Assembly (NCBI GenBank): GCA_026392045.1
Contig: JAPLCU010000041.1
Span: forward strand, 84 to 64,083
From: Armatimonadota bacterium
Lineage (GTDB): Bacteria; Armatimonadota; UBA5829
Direction of reading: 5' to 3'
DNA: 64,000 bases
The notes under the pieces were generated by a model. That model was given only the letters and a program-made list of their open reading frames with translations, ran no database searches and was not told the DNA's origin. Positions 1 through 54,646 of the stretch are shown here, piece by piece (positions within the stretch are counted from its first letter, which is position 1; every line of letters starts with the position of its first letter). Made by a program: the position numbers and the translations under genes.

Positions 1-135
1 CGGGAATGGCGATTATCGACGAGGTAACAAGTTTCATCAAACGTCAATTCCCGCAGCTTGCCCTTACATGGCTGCGGGAACTCTTGAATGTGCTAAATTG
101 GGAGCTCTGATGTTTTAGCCGTTCCCGCAGCATAC
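1..135. repeat. REP-like palindromic units, family 1 (arms GCTGCGGGAA / TTCCCGCAGC around a ~35-40 nt variable loop); the first unit is cut by the window edge
   Basis: cgggaatggcg (1-11) pairs with cgtcaattcccgcagc (42-57). gctgcgggaac (71-81) pairs with gttcccgcagc (121-131). The same arms recur at 13273-13573 and 48063-48123. Confidence 0.6.
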
Positions 136-154
136 CGAAAATCCGGCACAAGCG

Positions 155-2176
155 CTACTTTGTCGGTGTCCCCTTCGGTCCGTTCTCACCCTTTGCCCAC
201 TTCAGCGAAAAGTAAGGAAAACCGTTGGGGCCATCGTTGCTGATGAGGTTGGTTTTGGAGCCGCTGTTGCCGTAAATCTCCATCGAGTATCTCCTTTTTC
301 TGAGCATGCCTTCGCGTGGGGGCTTTGTGTCATTTGGAGAAACGGCTATCGTGCTGCCGCCATACGAAAGACCGCCGCCGCCCGTTGCCTCCAATTTGAG
401 CTCTACCCAATTCTCTTTGCTCGTGATCCGCATTTTAAGCCTGGACAGCGCTTTAGGGTCGGTGGGGAGTAAGCGCTGGTTACGGAAAGTGCGATCATGA
501 TCGTACTGTGTGAATCCGTCATTGCATTTCTTACACGCCGCTACAAGCAGCGCCGACTCGAAAAAGCTCATTGGAATCCCGGACTCCGACCTCGCCATCA
601 GCTTCTCTTCCGGGCTAAGGGAGTCATATAGAGCCCACAGCGGCTTCATCGGGCCGAAACTCGCCATCGTGAGGATCGCAAGATCTCTGTTACCTGATAT
701 CCAACCATTATATTGCTCATCTGTCAGAGTGGTGAGCGGGGTCGCATCGTCGAGGTTCACGCCTCCCTTTTCCAGCTTAGACTTCATCTGCCGGATGAGG
801 CTCACTGGTACCAGACCCGCGTGCTGATCAATCCAAGATCGTGATACCGCAACCACAAGCTTGTTATCAGCGTCCGTAAGGCAGTCTACGTCCCAACGGA
901 ATAATCTAAGCACGTCTTGGATTGTCAGTTTTTCTTGTGGAAGACTGCTGATTCGACTGCTTATTCTCTGGCTGTTGAAGTCTTCGCAGACGATGGTATA
1001 CCCGCTTGCGTCCGAAAGCGCCAGTATCACATCCGCAAGGGTCGGAAGCCCGTCCAGTTTCTCCGGGGCTTTGAGCTTAACTTTTGTCGCCAAAAACTCC
1101 TGGATCGGGTCTTTCCATTCCACCGGAGTATACTTGGTCCTGATATCGCTGCCGCCGAGCGGATCAGGCAGTGAATTACTTGTCTCCGGCAGTTTGACAT
1201 ACTCCAGTGCATCCCGGATGCTCACATTGAGGCTGTCCACAACAGCATCGCCACGTTCATTGTGAGCAGGGGAATTGACGCAGATCTGCGGCCAGATACT
1301 ATCTGATTGCTCACGCGTATAAAGGATCACCTCGCTCTGCTCTATCTCCTGTTGAGTGGCTTTACTGTTTAGAGTGTATGAGCCAGGGAAGCTGAAACCT
1401 GACTCGTGTCTCTTGCGCATTACCGCCACTAGATCAAGCAGGGCCAGCCGCACGTTTTCCGGCAAGCTTTCTCCCTGGAGAATAACCTGTTCGCCAGCTT
1501 TCAGGGAGTCTCGCGCACTGTTACCCAGAGCGCTTACAAGCCTGCCAATCGCCCGAGCATTGTTGAACTTCAAGCTCTTATCATCATCACCTGTCTCTTC
1601 AGGTCGGGATGCCAGGCTCTCCGCCGCCGCCCATTCCCTATCAAACTTCTGTCGCTTTTGAATATTCTGCGCGATCTCGTGCTCGGCCAGCGCCCTCTCC
1701 ATTCTAATGGTGCGGACGAACCGGTACTTGCGCGGACTGTCGACGGTCTTGCTTGAGGTGAGGGCAACGTGGCTCACATCGGCAATGGTTGATAGCAACT
1801 TGCCGAGTTTGATATCTTTCGCGCTGATGGTGACCGGGATATCTCGGACGCGCCAGTCGCTGTTGTTCTTGCCGCTGGCGATGGCGACGCCCGTGATCCG
1901 GCTAAGCTCGCTGGCAATATCTTGAAGCCGCCCCTGTTTGACCTGGTAGGTGACTTTCTTGCTGAGACGATCGTCAGGCCCAGATTTCGTATCGACGGGC
2001 TGAGAGGATATTGCCGTGGGTGTGTTGGGGTCCACTTCAACCTTGCCATAAGCCGATGACGGGTCTGGTTTTACGAGCATAAGAAGGCAGATTGCAGCCA
2101 AAATTAGATAACGCACTTTTGCGATTCTCCTTGCTGCCAGCATCATCATTTTAGTTGTTGTTGGAGTTCTTCTCAT
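155..2176 (-). CDS. hypothetical secreted protein (673 aa) with an N-terminal signal peptide and no recognisable domain
   Basis: Long ORF with a GGGAGGAAAGG Shine-Dalgarno upstream of the ATG at 2176. The hydrophobic N-terminus (ILAAICLLMLV) is followed by Ala-x-Ala-like cleavage context. Confidence 0.6.
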   Translation of the reverse strand: MRRTPTTTKMMMLAARRIAKVRYLILAAICLLMLVKPDPSSAYGKVEVDPNTPTAISSQPVDTKSGPDDRLSKKVTYQVKQGRLQDIASELSRITGVAIASGKNNSDWRVRDIPVTISAKDIKLGKLLSTIADVSHVALTSSKTVDSPRKYRFVRTIRMERALAEHEIAQNIQKRQKFDREWAAAESLASRPEETGDDDKSLKFNNARAIGRLVSALGNSARDSLKAGEQVILQGESLPENVRLALLDLVAVMRKRHESGFSFPGSYTLNSKATQQEIEQSEVILYTREQSDSIWPQICVNSPAHNERGDAVVDSLNVSIRDALEYVKLPETSNSLPDPLGGSDIRTKYTPVEWKDPIQEFLATKVKLKAPEKLDGLPTLADVILALSDASGYTIVCEDFNSQRISSRISSLPQEKLTIQDVLRLFRWDVDCLTDADNKLVVAVSRSWIDQHAGLVPVSLIRQMKSKLEKGGVNLDDATPLTTLTDEQYNGWISGNRDLAILTMASFGPMKPLWALYDSLSPEEKLMARSESGIPMSFFESALLVAACKKCNDGFTQYDHDRTFRNQRLLPTDPKALSRLKMRITSKENWVELKLEATGGGGLSYGGSTIAVSPNDTKPPREGMLRKRRYSMEIYGNSGSKTNLISNDGPNGFPYFSLKWAKGENGPKGTPTK

Positions 2177-2262
2177 TGTCTACCTTTCCTCCCGGGTCAG
2201 TTATACCATAGAGTTTGTCCATACTGCTAACATAATATTTGAATATGTAGCAAATCATTGAA

Positions 2263-2292
2263 TTATATCACGCACTTTGGGGGGGTGTCAAG
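2263..2292 (-). promoter_or_regulatory. sigma70-type promoter on the minus strand: TTGACA, an 18-nt spacer containing a C7/G7 homopolymer, and an extended -10 TGaTATAAT
   Basis: Reverse complement of 2261-2296 is agTCTTGACAcccccccaaagtgcgTGaTATAATtc. The G run is at 2280-2286. It lies ~85 nt upstream of the ATG of the 155..2176 gene. Confidence 0.45.
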
Positions 2293-2328
2293 ACTTGTTT
2301 TGTAGTCTTGTCTATGCAAAGCGAAATT

Positions 2329-2360
2329 GGCTGGATTGCAAATCCAGCCCCAACATTAGT
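2329..2360. repeat. family-4 motif GGCTGGATTGCAAATCCAGCC + CCAACATTAGT
   Basis: Near-identical 31-bp motif at 45772-45802 and 46868-46899 (GGGC(A/T)GGATTGCAAATCCGCCC(A/G)AAC(G/T)TAGT). Confidence 0.5.
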
Positions 2361-2468
2361 CCGAGAACGGTTTTCCCGGACTATCCAGGGAGTGGGCCGC
2401 GTAAACCCATTATGTTTTTATATGTTTTGGCACGCTTTTTGTGCCGAAAAAAAGCACAATTATCAGGC

Positions 2469-2500
2469 ATGCTTCGGGACGAAAAACAGTCCCGAAGCAT
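2469..2500. repeat. family-6 hairpin ATGCTTCGGGAC-gaaaaaca-GTCCCGAAGCAT
   Basis: Its 26-bp core is the exact reverse complement of cttcgggactgtttttcgtcccgaag at 59084-59109. Confidence 0.5.
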
Positions 2501-2605
2501 ATTAAACCGTCATTTACCGCATCTAATGAGTCTTGGATGTAGGAAGAGCTAACTTTGAAAGCTGTAGTCAGAGGCAGTTTTGGCGTGATCATTGAAGTTG
2601 ATTGT

Positions 2606-2645
2606 GCGGCAGGGGGCGGAATTGCTCCCGCCCCCTGCCGCATAG
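2606..2645. other. perfect 15-bp GC-rich inverted repeat TGCGGCAGGGGGCGG-aattgct-CCGCCCCCTGCCGCA; candidate terminator for the upstream minus-strand gene
   Basis: Perfect palindrome ~90 nt downstream of the stop at 2733. No U-tract on either strand. Confidence 0.35.
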
Positions 2646-2732
2646 GTTCCGGCGTATCGTTTTCCCACGCCGGGATCGTCCCTCGAATCAGGCTGCCACA
2701 TGGACTATCGTGATCGCCTGGTCCGCGCATGA

Positions 2733-4750
2733 CTAAGGCAATGGCACGTTAATGACAGTGTTCACCATTGTAACCGAAGCATACAAGCCCAACGCTCTGC
2801 CTTCCAACGTCGTTATTCTCACTTCGCCGGAGGTAGAGATTTCGACTCCTGCAGAAGCAATAATGGTTCCCACCATGTTAGCGCCAGCGTTGATCGTCGC
2901 TGCACTGCCGACCTGCCAATAGACGTTGTTGGGATTGCCGATGCCGTCCTTGAATATAACCTCGGCAATTAATGGGTCACTTGTGTCGCCCACGGTGAGT
3001 GATGCCCCCATCTGGAAGACCCAGACTGCATTCGGGTCACCCAAAGCGTCGAGCGTTAGAGTTCCCCCTGCCTCTATATTGAACGTGTCTCCCGCGGCTT
3101 TGTAGACGCCAGGGGCGAGGACCAGCCCACTTAGCTCGCCGGAGGCACTTGGATCAGGCCCCGTTGGGGCTAATCCTGCGAGATCGTTCCACGCTTCGAG
3201 CGAGTCGTCAAAGGCCGCCTGTGCTATCGCCATTGTGGCCAAAGTTCCTCCCACAGGAGTACCACCTGGGTGCGCCGGTGGCGGTGCATCAGTGTATATC
3301 CTCCCGGTGACCTCTCCATCAGGTGCACCGTATTCGTCTCCGGTGCTATCGAAGAATGCGACCACCAAAGTAGAAGCAGCCGTGGTTCCAATATCACCAT
3401 CGATGACGGTAAGGATCCCCTCGTTGGTTATCCCGGCACCACCCCCGAAAGCGCCGAAGGAGGCGGCCGATCCAAGGTCTCCTGGTGCTGGACCCGGCGC
3501 GAAATTGGCCGTGACCGTCTTGTCCTCGTCCATCGTGATCGTGGTCGGATTCATTGTGCCGCTCAAATCGCCGCTCCAGCCGACAAAGTGGTAGCCTGCC
3601 GCCGCCGCCGCCGTCAGCCCAATCACAGTTCCATAGTTATACGTCGGCTGATTCAGCGACTTCATCACATCCCCGTTCTCCGCAATTACCGTCAGGGTGT
3701 AGTTGTTGCCAACGATGAATGTGGCGCTGGGTCCGGCGGCAAGCGCTAAATTACCTGCCGCATCGGATGCCGTGTTCGCCGCTATCGAGATTCCCAGCGT
3801 ACCATTGCCGGTGATACTGGAAATCCTTACCGTTCTGGTTGCCGTGCCACTACCGGAAACAGCTACCGTTCCGTTGGCCGTGCCTGTCTTGTTCAGTGTG
3901 ACATTACCCGCCACAAGCGTGACAGTATTAGCGCCGCCGTACGTAATCGTATAGGTTATCGGGCCACTCCTCGTCTGCAATGCCGAGGGAGCGCCGATAC
4001 TGATTGTCGGCCTGGTGTTGTCAACGGTGAACCTGGTGCTGGGTCCGGCGGCAAGCGCTAAGTTACCAGTCGTATCGGATGCCGTGCTCGGCGCTATCGA
4101 GATCCCCAGCGTACCATTGCCGGTGATACTGGAAATCCTTACCGTTCTGGTTGCCGTGCCACTACCGGATACAGCTAACGTTCCGTTGGCCGTGCCTGTC
4201 TTGTTCAGTGTGACATTACCTGCCAGAAGCGTGACAGTATTAGCGCCGCCATACGTAATCGTATAGGTTATCGGGCCATTTCTCGTCTGCAATGCCGAGG
4301 GAGCGCCGATACTGATTGTCGGCCTGGTCACATCATACGTCACCGTATTGTCGGTGGAGGTAGATGCCTTGCTGGCATTACCCATTTGACGTCGTGCGCG
4401 ACACCGGCCGCCAAGTTCGCAATCACCGTACCACTGCCCGTCATGCCGGTGACGGCCACGTTGTATGTCTTACCGGTCCCGGTGACCGTGCGAACCAGTG
4501 TGCCGGGCGCTGTACCGGTCAGGGTGACATCGCCAGCGGCGAAGTCTTTGACCGCCTTGCTGAAGACCACGGTGAAGTTGATCGGCGACGTCCTCGTCGG
4601 GTCGGCTTGGCCGACTTTCTGATTGATGGTGACGGTGGGCTTGACGACCAATTGTGCAGGCACCATTGATGCCCATCCGACTACAGAAACGACCAGAATT
4701 AATAACGTAAGCCCTAAATATGTGGTGTATATGCGCATTTTCTTGTCCAT
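2733..4750 (-). CDS. repeat-containing surface protein with a C-terminal ice-binding-like (DUF3494-type) beta-helix domain; an apparent frameshift near 4385 splits it into ORFs 4340..4750 (signal peptide + repeat 1) and 2733..4385
   Basis: The N-terminal ORF has a signal peptide and a ~100-aa unit resembling the two near-identical tandem ~100-aa repeats in the 550-aa ORF (also visible as a DNA tandem repeat, ~3700-4000 vs ~4010-4300). The C-terminal region shows LGSAASFGAFGGGAGITNEG...GDIG, typical of the ice-binding-like family. Both frames are open over 4340-4385. Confidence 0.55.
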
Positions 4751-5446
4751 TACTTACCTCCAAATTTCATTGTCAAGCCGATGAAGTATCTGGAACCATT
4801 GCCTAAACCAACCTGGCAGGTGAGATCTGGTGTAATGGGCTGGCGAATCGTGGCGCCAAACATGCTCCCGGCAGCAATATCATCAATTATGTAGTCAAAT
4901 CCGAAAGTCGTTTTCCCAGGCGCTACAAACTCTATTCCCATCATTCCGGTGAGGTTGCTGCTTGATGCGCTTTGGTTCGGCCTCTGATAGAGCAAGCCGA
5001 CAGTAGCTCTGTATCTGTCACCTATGCAACAAAGTCTATCGCTAGCGACCAGGTATAGGTCGGTCTCTGCGGTATTGCCGCTGAGGTACATCACACCAGC
5101 CGCTATGCTAGGCGACTTCTCACTCTCATGTGCGAAAATGTACTTCGCATTGATGCCTTTGACTGCAGTGTAGTCTTGGACATTGAAGTAGCTCAGGCCG
5201 ATTTCCCCATTCGCAACCCCATAACCAAGGGTCACAACGGGGAATACAACTATCCCAACGTCAGCCACCTTGGGCCTGTCATAGGCCAACATCATCTCGA
5301 AGTTCCCTTCCGTCACGACCTCTGCCGTAGGTAAGTTCAGAATTCCCGTAGGGCCGATTGAGGAGGGTGCGCTGAATGACGCCGTTGCCATCAAAGACAC
5401 TAACGTCACCAGTCCTGCCAACAACACGTTCTTTTTCATCTGCATA
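4750..5446 (-). CDS. secreted protein with a signal peptide (possible beta-barrel/outer-membrane-like); its stop overlaps the downstream adhesin-like gene start (TAATG)
   Basis: ORF with an AAGGAG RBS 8 nt before ATG (MQMKKNVLLAGLVTLVSLMATASFSA). Alternating hydrophobic pattern. Confidence 0.5.
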
Positions 5447-5791
5447 TGCATAACTCCTTCTGAGCCTGTCCCATCCATGGTTGGAAGTGGTAGCTCTACT
5501 GAATGCTACACTGCTTTTTCCTTTTTGTCAATCTTTTCGTCCAGTATTGGGGACAGAGCCTTATTTGACAGCAAACAACATAAGTGATCACCTGCTCCGG
5601 AAATCCCAGTCCCTTCCCACTCATTCCCTTCCAGACTCTCCGCTCTCTGCTCTCCACTCTCCGCTGTTCCTGTGAGAGAGTTCAGTCTTGTGGGATTGGA
5701 AAAAAAGCGAGAAATTCAACTGGTGCAAAATACCCCAAAAATATGTTCTCCAAAGGTAATGTTTTTGGAGGTGGGTGCATAAGTAGTCCAT

Positions 5792-5908
5792 GTGAGTGGA
5801 TTAGATGATCTGACAAGAGAAGAACTGATAGAGCTGGTTTTGAAGCTACACGAGATACTGCAGGCTCAGCAGCGAGAGATTGCTGAGTTTAGGTCTTTTG
5901 GGATTTGA
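5792..5908 (+). pseudogene. IS66-family transposase (TnpC-like) N-terminal fragment of ~38 codons, truncated where a family-5 hairpin element begins
   Basis: Translation VSGLDDLTREELIELVLKLHEILQAQQREIAEFRSFGI* resembles the leucine-zipper N-terminus of IS66 transposases (L-x-EELIALVL...LFGxKSEK). The stop is created inside the repeat. Confidence 0.4.
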
Positions 5909-5976
5909 GTGGAGCGTCAGCGGAACGGAAATCCCAAAACAAACTGCGGCACAACCAAGAGGAAATCGCGGCAAAC
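5895..5976. repeat. family-5 hairpin element copy 1 (stem TTTTGGGATTT / AAATCCCAAAA plus a conserved 3' tail ...CAACCAAGAGGAAATCGCGGCAAAC)
   Basis: Same element at 46921-47000 and 47298-47373, with compensatory stem changes (TTTCGGG/CCCGAAA). Confidence 0.55.
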
Positions 5977-6130
5977 GGGTCGCTTGAAGGATACGCAGCA
6001 TACCCGAATAATTATATATTTCTTAGATGCTACAGCTTCCGCCCATAAGTCGGCATACGTAACGCCAGGTATCCGCCCACACCAGGGCGGCGCTTCGCGC
6101 CTGGCGTTACTTTGCCGAATGGTCCAAAAT

Positions 6131-14728: not shown

Positions 14729-16432
14729 ATGTTTGGGCAATATTGCCTGCATAACTATCGCGCACTTGCGAATGCAGGCAGATTGGCTTACCATGTGGGT
14801 ATGGCAGTTGATTTATATGAGAAAGCAAAAGCCAGGCTTGCAAAAGAATCCGGCAGATTGAGCATCAATGGGGCGGCTGCGGTGCGCTTCGCGTTGGCAT
14901 TTCCCAACGTATACAGCGTGGGGATGGCATCGCTCGGTTACCAGCTTGTGTATCAGATGTTGAATTCATTGCCCAACGCTTCCTGCGAACGGGTGTTTTT
15001 GCCGGATGATGGCGACCTCGAAGAGCACGAGCGCACGCAAACGGAAGTATTCACTCTGGAAAGCCTCAGACCGCTTTCTGAGTTTCATGTGCTGGGCTTT
15101 TCGATATCGTTTGAGCTTGATTATATTAACGTCCTCAAAATAATCAAGCTTGGCAACTTGCCGGTTTTGAGCTCCGAGCGAGGCGATTACGACCCGATTG
15201 TGATTGCAGGGGGGCCATGCGCTTCGTTTAACCCCGAGCCTCTTAGCGATTTCATAGATGTGTTTGTAATCGGCGACGCTGAAGAGGCGCTGCCTGAGAT
15301 GGTGAATGCCATCGAGCGCACACTCGGTAAACCACGCCTGCAAAGGCTTGAGGCGCTGGCGGGAGTGGCGGGGGTATATATTCCCATATTAAACAATAAA
15401 GCAAGCCGCGCAATCGCACGCGATCTAGACATTTACCCCGCAGCATCTCTAATTCACGCTGACGACGCTCAGTTTGGCGACATTAGTCTGGTTGAAATCT
15501 CTCGTGGGTGCGGCAGAAAGTGTCGGTTTTGTTTGGCCGGGCACATCACACGTCCGCCAAGACCTCGATTGCTATCTGAAGCGCAAATTAGAGGAAAATC
15601 GCGGATGGGTCTTGTAGGCGCTGCTGTTTTCGATCACCCAGACTCCATAAATATATGCCGTTCGATAGTGAATTCTGGCGGGGAGTTTACTGTGTCATCA
15701 TTACGGCTGGAAACAGTCACTCCCGAACTTGCGGGTCTGATGGCGTCTGGAGGGCAGAGAACTCTTACTATTGCGCCTGAGGCTGCCACGGATCGCCTGC
15801 GCAAGGCGATAAACAAGTATTCGACTGATGAGCAGATATTTACAGCTATATCCATCGCGTATGAGTCAGGGTTCAGGCGGGTAAAGTTATACTTTATGAT
15901 TGGTTTGCCGACTGAGACCAACGACGACATCGCAGCGATTATCGATCTTACGAAGCGGGTGTCGCGTGAGTATCCATCCATGCAGTTTCAAGTTTCCGCC
16001 AGCAGTTTCGTGCCGAAACCGTGGACGCCTTTCCAGTGGCATGTGATGGAACGTGAAAACGTGCTTAAAAAGCGTTATGCGATGCTTCGCTCGGGGATAT
16101 CCTCCATCAAGAACGCTCAATTTGGAGGAGAAAGCCCGAGGCTTGCGTCGGTTCAGGGTTACCTTGCGAGGGGCGACCGCAGCTTGGGACGAGTTCTATT
16201 GACGGCATTGGAGAACGGTGGAGATTACGGCGCCGCGCTTCGCGAGACCGGTGTTGACGCCTCGCAATATCTATATCGCGAGCGATCAGTCGAGGAGATT
16301 TTGCCCTGGGACCACCTTGATATGGCTGTGGATAAGAATTACCTCTGGCGCGAGTATGAAAAATCATTGGAAGGAAAGTTATCTGAGCCTTGTAATGTCG
16401 GCGGGTGTCAGGCGTGCGGAGCGTGTAAATAA
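14729..16432 (+). CDS. B12-binding-domain radical SAM protein
   Basis: CxxxCxxC (GCGRKCRFC) radical SAM motif after an N-terminal B12-binding-like region. C-terminal Cys cluster CNVGGCQACGAC. Confidence 0.75.
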   Translation: MFGQYCLHNYRALANAGRLAYHVGMAVDLYEKAKARLAKESGRLSINGAAAVRFALAFPNVYSVGMASLGYQLVYQMLNSLPNASCERVFLPDDGDLEEHERTQTEVFTLESLRPLSEFHVLGFSISFELDYINVLKIIKLGNLPVLSSERGDYDPIVIAGGPCASFNPEPLSDFIDVFVIGDAEEALPEMVNAIERTLGKPRLQRLEALAGVAGVYIPILNNKASRAIARDLDIYPAASLIHADDAQFGDISLVEISRGCGRKCRFCLAGHITRPPRPRLLSEAQIRGKSRMGLVGAAVFDHPDSINICRSIVNSGGEFTVSSLRLETVTPELAGLMASGGQRTLTIAPEAATDRLRKAINKYSTDEQIFTAISIAYESGFRRVKLYFMIGLPTETNDDIAAIIDLTKRVSREYPSMQFQVSASSFVPKPWTPFQWHVMERENVLKKRYAMLRSGISSIKNAQFGGESPRLASVQGYLARGDRSLGRVLLTALENGGDYGAALRETGVDASQYLYRERSVEEILPWDHLDMAVDKNYLWREYEKSLEGKLSEPCNVGGCQACGACK

Positions 16433-21032: not shown

Positions 21033-22157
21033 ATGCGAAGAAAGAAACTGGTATTGATGATGGCAGCGCCAGCTTGTATGGCGCTATGTTCTATGGTGTA
21101 TGCAGCGCCAACAGCCGCACCGAAGGCTGTAGTTGCAAAGACGTTCAATCAAAAGGCAGAAATGGATAAGTTCTGGAATGGCCCAGACAGCGCCGTAGTT
21201 GGTAAGATATCCGGCGTAAATGTGACCAAAGGCGAGCTTATCAAGGCTCTTTGGGACAGAACCGCTCCAAACATGCTTGCTGAGTTGCTTGATCTGAAGA
21301 TGCTCGAGCAGGCGGCTAAGAAGCAGAAGTTACAGGTTGGCAATGCTGATATTAACAAAGAGATAAAAGAAGTCCTCAAGCAGACGCAACTTCCTAGCAA
21401 AGAAGCTCTTATGGAAAAATTCAAAGTAACATACGGGTTCTTCTATGGAAAGCTGAAATTTCAGGCAATCTTGAAAAAACTGGCCGTTGCGAAAACCAAA
21501 GTTGATCCGGCTGAGTATGCTCAGTATATGAAAGCCAGCCATATTTTGATCAGATTCGACCCGTCTATAGCCGATAAGACTCAGCAGGATGCCGCTGCCA
21601 AGACAAAGATCGATGAGATTGCCGCCAGACTCAAGGCAGGCGAAGATTTTGCCAAGGTTGCTAAAGAAGTATCCGAAGATCCGATCAGCAAAGAGAAGGG
21701 CGGTTCTCTCGGTTGGTTCTCCAAGGGGGGTGGGATGGTGGCGGAATTCGAGCAGGCTGCATTTGCTCTGAAAGCAGGTCAGATCAGCGAGCCTACCAAG
21801 ACCACCTACGGTTATCACATTATCAAGGCTGAGGCTATTGGTAAGGATGCCACTGGAGCTGAAAAAGCAGAGCTCAAGCAGATGATCACTGACACAAAGG
21901 TTCCCATGCAAATGCAAATGATCGTTAATGACCTCAAGATCGAAAGCGCCAAGTCGAGAGTAGATAATATTTCTCTTCCGGTTGATCCTAATGCTATGCC
22001 CACAATGGGAGCCCCTGGAGGTCCCAGGCCGGGATCTGGTGGACCTGGTGGCCCCAGGCCGACGATTAGACCGACACCTCCGCCTCCGCCTACACCAAGC
22101 GACAGGCCGGCAACGCCGCCAACTCCGCCGACGCCGCCAACTCCTCCCACTGAGTAG
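21033..22157 (+). CDS. PpiC-type peptidyl-prolyl cis-trans isomerase (PrsA/SurA-like) with a C-terminal Pro/Thr-rich tail
   Basis: Signal peptide. Parvulin motif (ASHILIRF...GGSLGWFSKGGMV). Tail PTPPTPPTPPTE. Confidence 0.8.
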   Translation: MRRKKLVLMMAAPACMALCSMVYAAPTAAPKAVVAKTFNQKAEMDKFWNGPDSAVVGKISGVNVTKGELIKALWDRTAPNMLAELLDLKMLEQAAKKQKLQVGNADINKEIKEVLKQTQLPSKEALMEKFKVTYGFFYGKLKFQAILKKLAVAKTKVDPAEYAQYMKASHILIRFDPSIADKTQQDAAAKTKIDEIAARLKAGEDFAKVAKEVSEDPISKEKGGSLGWFSKGGGMVAEFEQAAFALKAGQISEPTKTTYGYHIIKAEAIGKDATGAEKAELKQMITDTKVPMQMQMIVNDLKIESAKSRVDNISLPVDPNAMPTMGAPGGPRPGSGGPGGPRPTIRPTPPPPPTPSDRPATPPTPPTPPTPPTE

Positions 22158-54226: not shown

Positions 54227-54440
54227 ACCCTGCAATATTACCATAATCTATTGTTCTGCCTATTAAACTCTCCATAAGTGTGAGGTAATCTGTTATAATA
54301 GATATATACTGCCGGTCTGCAAAAAGCTCATGGTCATGGGTAAATATCCCGATGTGATTTCCTGAAACTAATTGTAGTCCTCGCGGCGTATGAACTATTG
54401 TGGTATTCAATCGCATCCTGTAAGCTGACGCTTTGTAACA

Positions 54441-54600
54441 GCTCACTCTTTGTGAGAATACACGTACAAACTAGCATCCTGAGCTCCGTCGAAGGGTGCG
54501 GATAAGTCTAATCAAATGTAATTTCCCTGCCGCGTGCTTCGTCCTTCGACGCTGCTCAGGATTGCTCAGCATGCTCACATTGTACTCATCAAGAGTGAGC
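54441..54600. repeat. 160-bp imperfect inverted repeat (MITE-like or structured RNA): ~56-bp arms around a 47-nt loop, followed by a T-run
   Basis: Left arm gctcactctt..catcctgagc..cgtcgaagg. The reverse complement of the right arm is gctcactctt..aatcctgagc..cgtcgaagg. Confidence 0.5.
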
Positions 54601-54616
54601 TTTTACGACGCTTTTG

Positions 54617-54646
54617 TTGACACCGCAAGTTGGTTGTAGATATAAT
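54617..54646 (+). promoter_or_regulatory. consensus sigma70 promoter TTGACA-18 nt-TATAAT upstream of secDF
   Basis: Exact consensus hexamers ~90 nt upstream of the GTG start. Confidence 0.55.

Follow-up and report, generated by a model that had tools for sequence, protein, structure and literature searches.

A consensus extended -10 promoter with a probably incidental C7 run in its spacer, upstream of a secreted-protein gene in an uncultured Armatimonadota bacterium

A near-perfect promoter of the housekeeping type stands before a secreted-protein gene of an uncultured Armatimonadota bacterium, in the stretch of 64,000 nt that was analysed here as a whole (the window), and we regard it as real. 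Its spacer contains seven consecutive C residues, and the original prediction was that slippage in this run may make expression of the downstream gene phase-variable. We think it probable that this is a strong, constitutive extended -10 promoter in which the C7 run is incidental. The run as a dedicated slipped-strand switch is not supported on present evidence, the stability of the tract being itself something that we infer.

Identification of the promoter

Read directly from the window, the minus strand carries cTTGACA-CCCCCCCAAAGTGCGTGA-TATAATt. The predicted arrangement, TTGACA, an 18-nt spacer with seven C, the TG of an extended -10 and TATAAT, is borne out by the sequence, and only the span had been misplaced by one base, at 2263-2292 where the true span is 2262-2291. 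The elements of the promoter, the gene and the region preceding them are as follows.

2291-2286, minus strand: -35 hexamer TTGACA, 6/6 (sequence and consensus scan)
2285-2268, minus strand: 18-nt spacer CCCCCCCAAAGTGCGTGA (sequence and consensus scan)
2285-2279, minus strand: C7 run abutting the -35 hexamer, equal to G7 on the plus strand at 2279-2285 (sequence)
2270-2269, minus strand: TG of the extended -10, TGaTATAAT, pattern TGnTATAAT (sequence and consensus scan)
2267-2262, minus strand: -10 hexamer TATAAT, 6/6 (sequence and consensus scan)
2255-2256, minus strand: putative transcription start, a purine 6-7 nt past the -10 (predicted from sequence)
2177..2254, minus strand: 5' untranslated leader to ATG 2176, from the putative start; no significant structure (z = 0.59)
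2188..2192, minus strand: Shine-Dalgarno GGAGG before ATG 2176; L008, the relative with 97% identity, has both
155..2176, minus strand: gene for the secreted protein, 673 aa long, or 653 aa if started at GTG 2116; signal peptide at the N-terminus (ORF and orthologue comparison)
2116-2114, minus strand: alternative start GTG, preceded by AAGGAG at 2127-2132; matches the MRY... start of all orthologues
2349-2329, minus strand: terminator-like hairpin (9-bp stem, T-rich tail) lying 38 nt before the -35
2605..2642, minus strand: hairpin with a perfect 15-bp stem, 3' of the ice-binding-family gene (2733-4385) and likely its terminator

In a consensus scan the promoter scores 12/12 with the TG and is the sole perfect match within positions 1-6000. 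Perfect TTGACA-N16-18-TATAAT sites number two across the whole window, against 0.015 +/- 0.12 expected from 200 dinucleotide-preserving shuffles, the same shuffles that provide the expectation for G/C runs given below. The second (TTGACA-18-TATAAT at 54617-54646, plus strand) drives secDF, which is identified by a match to Pfam SecD_SecF_C at 1.1e-69. Because these sites so far exceed the shuffles, and because both are intergenic and oriented towards a gene, we conclude that the organism uses this consensus and that the promoter is real. It sits 85 nt upstream of ATG 2176 and combines the features of a housekeeping promoter: TTGACA and TATAAT 16-18 nt apart, TG at -15/-14, a frequency above chance and intergenic placement. 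It had been described as a consensus promoter with an extended -10, and that description holds: the promoter is of sigma-70 type and correctly positioned to drive the gene for the signal-peptide protein.

A sceptical reading would be that the consensus match is non-functional, and that the gene is transcribed by read-through from the ice-binding-family gene or from a promoter of another sigma factor. The sigma-factor specificity of Armatimonadota is presumed here and the start position is a prediction, both of which leave room for such a reading, but we consider it most improbable. Perfect sites are more than 100-fold above shuffles with both facing genes, nothing besides the perfect promoter rises above 8/12 between 2177 and 2732, and the hairpins at 2605-2642 and 2329-2349 separate the upstream gene from the promoter. 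The nearer of these probably insulates the promoter from upstream read-through, and the two together argue for an insulated, independent start. A riboswitch or attenuator in the leader was also considered, and dropped because the leader folds no better than shuffles and Rfam, at gathering and E-value thresholds, gave no match in the promoter region or the leader.

The region further upstream has a peculiarity of its own. The 550-aa ORF at 2733-4385 (minus strand) has two 104-aa repeats, an InlB B-repeat and an ice-binding-like domain; a 136-aa ORF at 4340-4750 (minus strand), with a signal peptide and a Big_12 Ig-like domain, overlaps it out of frame. Together they resemble one surface-protein gene frameshifted near AAATGGG (junction ~4375-4390), where there is no long repeat. 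A pseudogene would account for the pair, as would an assembly error, or these may simply be two genes.

The downstream gene and its product

The claim that the gene at 155..2176 (minus strand) encodes a secreted 673-aa protein of unknown function stands. The N-termini of the orthologues read MRY... and then have a hydrophobic core and an A-x-A motif, as is typical of Sec signal peptides. All orthologues start at the equivalent of GTG 2116, so the actual product may be the 653-aa form; against this, the closest relative, L008, has kept both ATG 2176 and the GGAGG before it. An 18-nt near-repeat (16/18) exists between the region of this GTG (2102-2119, AAAGTGCGTTATCTAATT) and the spacer and -10 of the promoter (2261-2278, AAAGTGCGTGATATAATT), and we rejected it as meaningful because it is at chance level (~0.4 expected per 6 kb by our own estimate).

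The 673-aa product has an exact counterpart in MCX6344516.1, encoded on a 64,221-nt contig of an 'Armatimonadetes bacterium' MAG; this record emerged through members of its protein cluster, whereas exact look-ups of the 673-aa and 550-aa products gave no hit. The 673-aa product matched no Pfam or NCBIfam family and no sequence relative in the PDB. Homologues occur only in Armatimonadota or in unclassified MAGs and metagenomes (8 proteins, 6 genome loci). An AlphaFold model built on the 8-sequence alignment has a mean pLDDT of 71.5, and among PDB structures it comes nearest, though weakly, to the PilQ N0 domain (E = 0.2, probability 0.96), so that the model gives only a hint that the protein might contain secretin-N0/STN-like modules.

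Spacer length in Armatimonadota promoters

Were C7 a slipped-strand contingency tract, gain or loss of a C would give spacers of 17, 18 or 19 nt and make the secreted protein more or less strongly expressed, stochastically and heritably. We judge this reading rather improbable, and the spacing itself contributes to that judgement. The original prediction took 18 nt to be suboptimal against an optimum of 17, which is a weak premise, since the two are near-equal in E. coli and every perfect promoter found in the lineage is N18. The window and the fetched loci, which without duplicates make up 123 kb of Armatimonadota DNA, contain three perfect TTGACA/TATAAT pairs, all N18 and none N17:

2291-2262, minus strand: the promoter described here
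54617-54646, plus strand: the secDF promoter
3817-3846, plus strand, in the fetched locus L010: a third perfect TTGACA-N18-TATAAT promoter

The orthologue in L003 and L004 has TTGACG-18-TACAAT. When a perfect -35 was paired with any -10 of at least 4/6, only spacers of 17 (six sites) and 18 (three sites) stood out, with none at 15, 16 or 19, although off-target spacings of 23, 25 and 28 also reach three to four. We rejected relaxed-hexamer counts as too noisy to be evidence of a preference, and consider only the perfect and near-perfect classes to be informative. An 18-nt spacer is normal for the best promoters in this lineage, a hint that it is well tolerated or preferred in Armatimonadota, and the spacing shared with secDF and the third perfect promoter counts against a slippage switch.

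On a consensus backbone in E. coli, 18 bp comes close behind 17 bp and spacers of 15-19 bp all give high expression, which may not hold for Armatimonadota, and the TG motif makes up for weak -35 contacts (PMC8695583). By analogy, a promoter with perfect hexamers and an extended -10 should be insensitive to a one-base change in its spacer, and if 17-19 bp are all active, then slippage in the C7 tract is predicted to have little phenotypic effect.

The tract could instead act at a fixed length, if a rigid, G+C-rich and under-twisted segment beside the -35 were to set the strength or supercoiling sensitivity of the promoter, or partly to offset the extra base pair. Spacer composition alone shifts the strength of a consensus promoter almost 10-fold (PMC8695583), and this favours such static tuning, but the perfect N18 promoters of secDF and L010 have no homopolymer, so a C-run is not required for 18-nt spacing, and the argument from twist is speculation. 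We regard static tuning as unlikely.

The homopolymeric tract

The presence of a simple sequence repeat between the -35 and -10 elements, with C7 straight after TTGACA, is what gives the slipped-strand reading its appeal, for this is where the tracts of porA, fetA and opc lie. G/C homopolymers in the window reach their greatest length in this run (G7 on the plus strand); the other long ones are two G6 (15209-15214 and 21725-21730), with zero C runs of at least 6. The single run of at least 7 is no surprise, the shuffles giving 3.25 +/- 1.8, and those of at least 6 are depleted (3 against 15.0 +/- 3.9). Runs of at least 5 are about two-fold enriched in the non-coding fraction, which holds 6 of the 27 runs and makes up 11.8% of the sequence. 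No further G/C run of at least 7 exists in ~59 kb of relatives' non-duplicate DNA, the duplicate copy L001 being the sole other match.

The architecture that was predicted stands in part: there is a homopolymer in the spacer, in the geometry of porA, opc and fetA, but phase variation does not follow, the tract being too short, its 18-nt spacer normal and its like missing from relatives and homologues. C7 falls short of the length needed for hypermutability, since documented promoter G/C tracts are 9-14 nt and variability is usual at 8 or more. PhasomeIt sets its G/C cut-off at 7 or more, so C7 just reaches it, but its authors caution that mutability may there be <1e-5 and switching inefficient; in Campylobacter jejuni NCTC 11168 the direct evidence concerns tracts of eight or more (PMC6321876). 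Variable homopolymers in Neisseria meningitidis are predominantly of at least 8, and SSRs are over-represented genome-wide (PMC5084427), while intergenic G/C tracts documented in Neisseria are of 9-14, for example fetA C(10-14) (PMC5953494). No such excess of long SSRs (a 'phasome') was found within the 64 kb of genome examined, where G/C runs are depleted instead. C7 is at or below the bottom of the known phase-variable range, in a DNA segment that avoids such runs.

Two observations are nonetheless counted among the points against an incidental C-run. The longest G/C run in ~124 kb sits inside the spacer of a perfect promoter, before a protein with a signal peptide, which is mildly unusual (the chance that the longest run of the window falls in a promoter spacer we estimate, post hoc, at roughly 0.5-5%); and the window encodes only MutS2 for mismatch repair. 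In a weaker variant of the slippage reading, C7 is a low-rate rheostat that would shift levels of the secreted, N0-domain-like protein in natural populations. We think this very unlikely. We know of no SSR-based contingency promoter in a free-living member of the Armatimonadota, among which a low-rate C7 rheostat would be the first; if phase variation did operate here, SSR contingency loci, known from host-adapted pathogens, would also occur in an uncultured phylum of the environment.

Other copies and homologous loci

The C7 promoter is known from only two assemblies, which may come from the same sample. The sole other copy lies on Logan contig L001 (SRR20698647), which is 100% identical to the window over 2389 nt (2498-110) and likewise has C7. 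An unchanged tract in a second assembly counts against slippage, but L001 may derive from the MAG's own sample and is for that reason weak evidence of tract stability. Pattern scans for the promoter with its tract length left free found nothing in genome or metagenome contig collections.

The ends of this contig fall in sequence of some interest. Just 3' of the stop codon, in window 47-136 (minus strand), there are two copies of GCTGCGGGAA(C/T), at 131-121 and 57-47, and one of its complement GTTCCCGCAGC, at 79-69, a set capable of forming hairpins; L001 ends inside this set (window 110) and begins inside another hairpin (2498).

The closest relative of the gene is found on L008 (JGI contig Ga0315287_10000585; the region described here is 1-1440), with 97% amino acid identity over the first 205 aa. 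Homology to the window in L008 DNA begins only ~27 nt upstream of ATG 2176 (window ~2203). An IS1380-family transposase gene (PF13701, E = 6.5e-95) lies directly upstream in the same orientation, and between it and the 673-aa-gene homologue there is a different promoter, TTGACG-17-TATACT. Neither ends of the IS nor target duplications were seen. On L007 (514-1020), which shares JGI sample 3300032397 with L008, homology to the window stops ~20 nt past the stop codon (window ~135). No JGI members were found in the clusters of neighbouring window proteins, and the more distant orthologues occupy unrelated genomic contexts.

In 10 homologue loci, the 500 nt upstream of the gene are free of G/C runs of at least 6 and of A/T runs of at least 7. 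As the promoter of L008 is also different, the tract is not a trait of the gene family, and its absence from the closest relative and all homologue loci tells against the slipped-strand reading. One orthologue locus, L006, has a tRNA-like sequence (recognised by eye, ~970-1045) after a TTGATC-17-TGcTATAAT promoter and before the start codon of the orthologue.

Other sequence elements

Back-to-back with the secDF promoter of the window is a conserved element of ~175 nt (54425-54600, minus strand), which recurs in L003 (4735-4905), L004 (~1965-2140) and L009 (~1240-1410) and is thus common to the window and a different Armatimonadota genome, with a 37-nt core, GCTCACTCTTGATGAGTAYAATGTGAGCATGCTGAGC, that is identical. 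In L003 its position is immediately 5' of the 673-aa-gene orthologue. A long imperfect hairpin is predicted for it and it matches no Rfam family; an ncRNA that has escaped annotation and a MITE-like repeat are both possible identities.

Good promoter matches at 45862-45890/45891 and 48153-48182/48191 end 0-8 nt before the first possible starts of ORFs for a PfkB kinase and MutS2, which suggests either that these have leaderless mRNAs or that the ORF starts are over-extended.

Proposed mode of expression

We propose that the gene is served by a sigma-70/sigma-A type promoter with an extended -10, which would be strong and essentially constitutive. Transcription would begin near 2255 on the minus strand, with the upstream hairpin insulating the promoter from the preceding gene. 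The mRNA would be monocistronic, and its product a Sec-exported protein whose family has so far turned up only in MAGs of Armatimonadota. On this proposal C7 is a mere part of the 18-nt spacer and would, at most, tune promoter strength statically through spacer composition. The feature is an ordinary strong promoter and its practical value is modest, but it and the secDF promoter are textbook-perfect, and work on Armatimonadota could use the two as reference points when predicting promoters or building expression tools.

Comparison with other bacterial promoters

In structure the promoter is akin to the extended -10 promoters recognised by sigma-70 and sigma-A in E. coli and Gram-positive bacteria, with which it shares perfect -35 and -10 hexamers, a TG one base before the latter and a spacing that falls in the range of 17 +/- 1 nt. 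It differs from them in that it belongs to an uncultured Armatimonadota MAG and is known from sequence, and in that 18 nt seems at least as common as 17 nt among the best matches.

Its likeness to contingency promoters is one of geometry. In the Bordetella pertussis fim2/fim3 promoters, with their poly-C, and in the Haemophilus influenzae hifA/hifB promoter, with its TA repeat, the length of the repeat sets the spacing of promoter elements, but these repeats are much longer than C7 and switching has been shown experimentally. The fim2/fim3 repeats comprise ~13-15 C, in a system that depends on the activator BvgA, and hifA/hifB has 9-11 TA units.

The porA, opc and fetA promoters of Neisseria are nearer in form, each having poly-G or poly-C between -35 and -10, upstream of a gene whose product is exported or lies at the surface, where the tract is thought to alter sigma-factor binding (PMC2791445). 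Their tracts are of 9-14 nt, vary both between and within strains, and belong to a species in which SSRs are over-represented. The Armatimonadota promoter, in contrast, has a tract of 7 nt in DNA depleted of G/C runs, and its perfect hexamers and TGn should tolerate spacers of 17-19 nt.

A further resemblance concerns the relative L008 and not the window. There, as in ISEcp1-type elements of the IS1380 family, a transposase gene lies upstream in the same orientation, with a promoter before the adjacent gene that the element may have supplied; by this analogy, the homologue of the 673-aa gene in L008 may have been mobilised by one-ended movement of an IS1380-family element.
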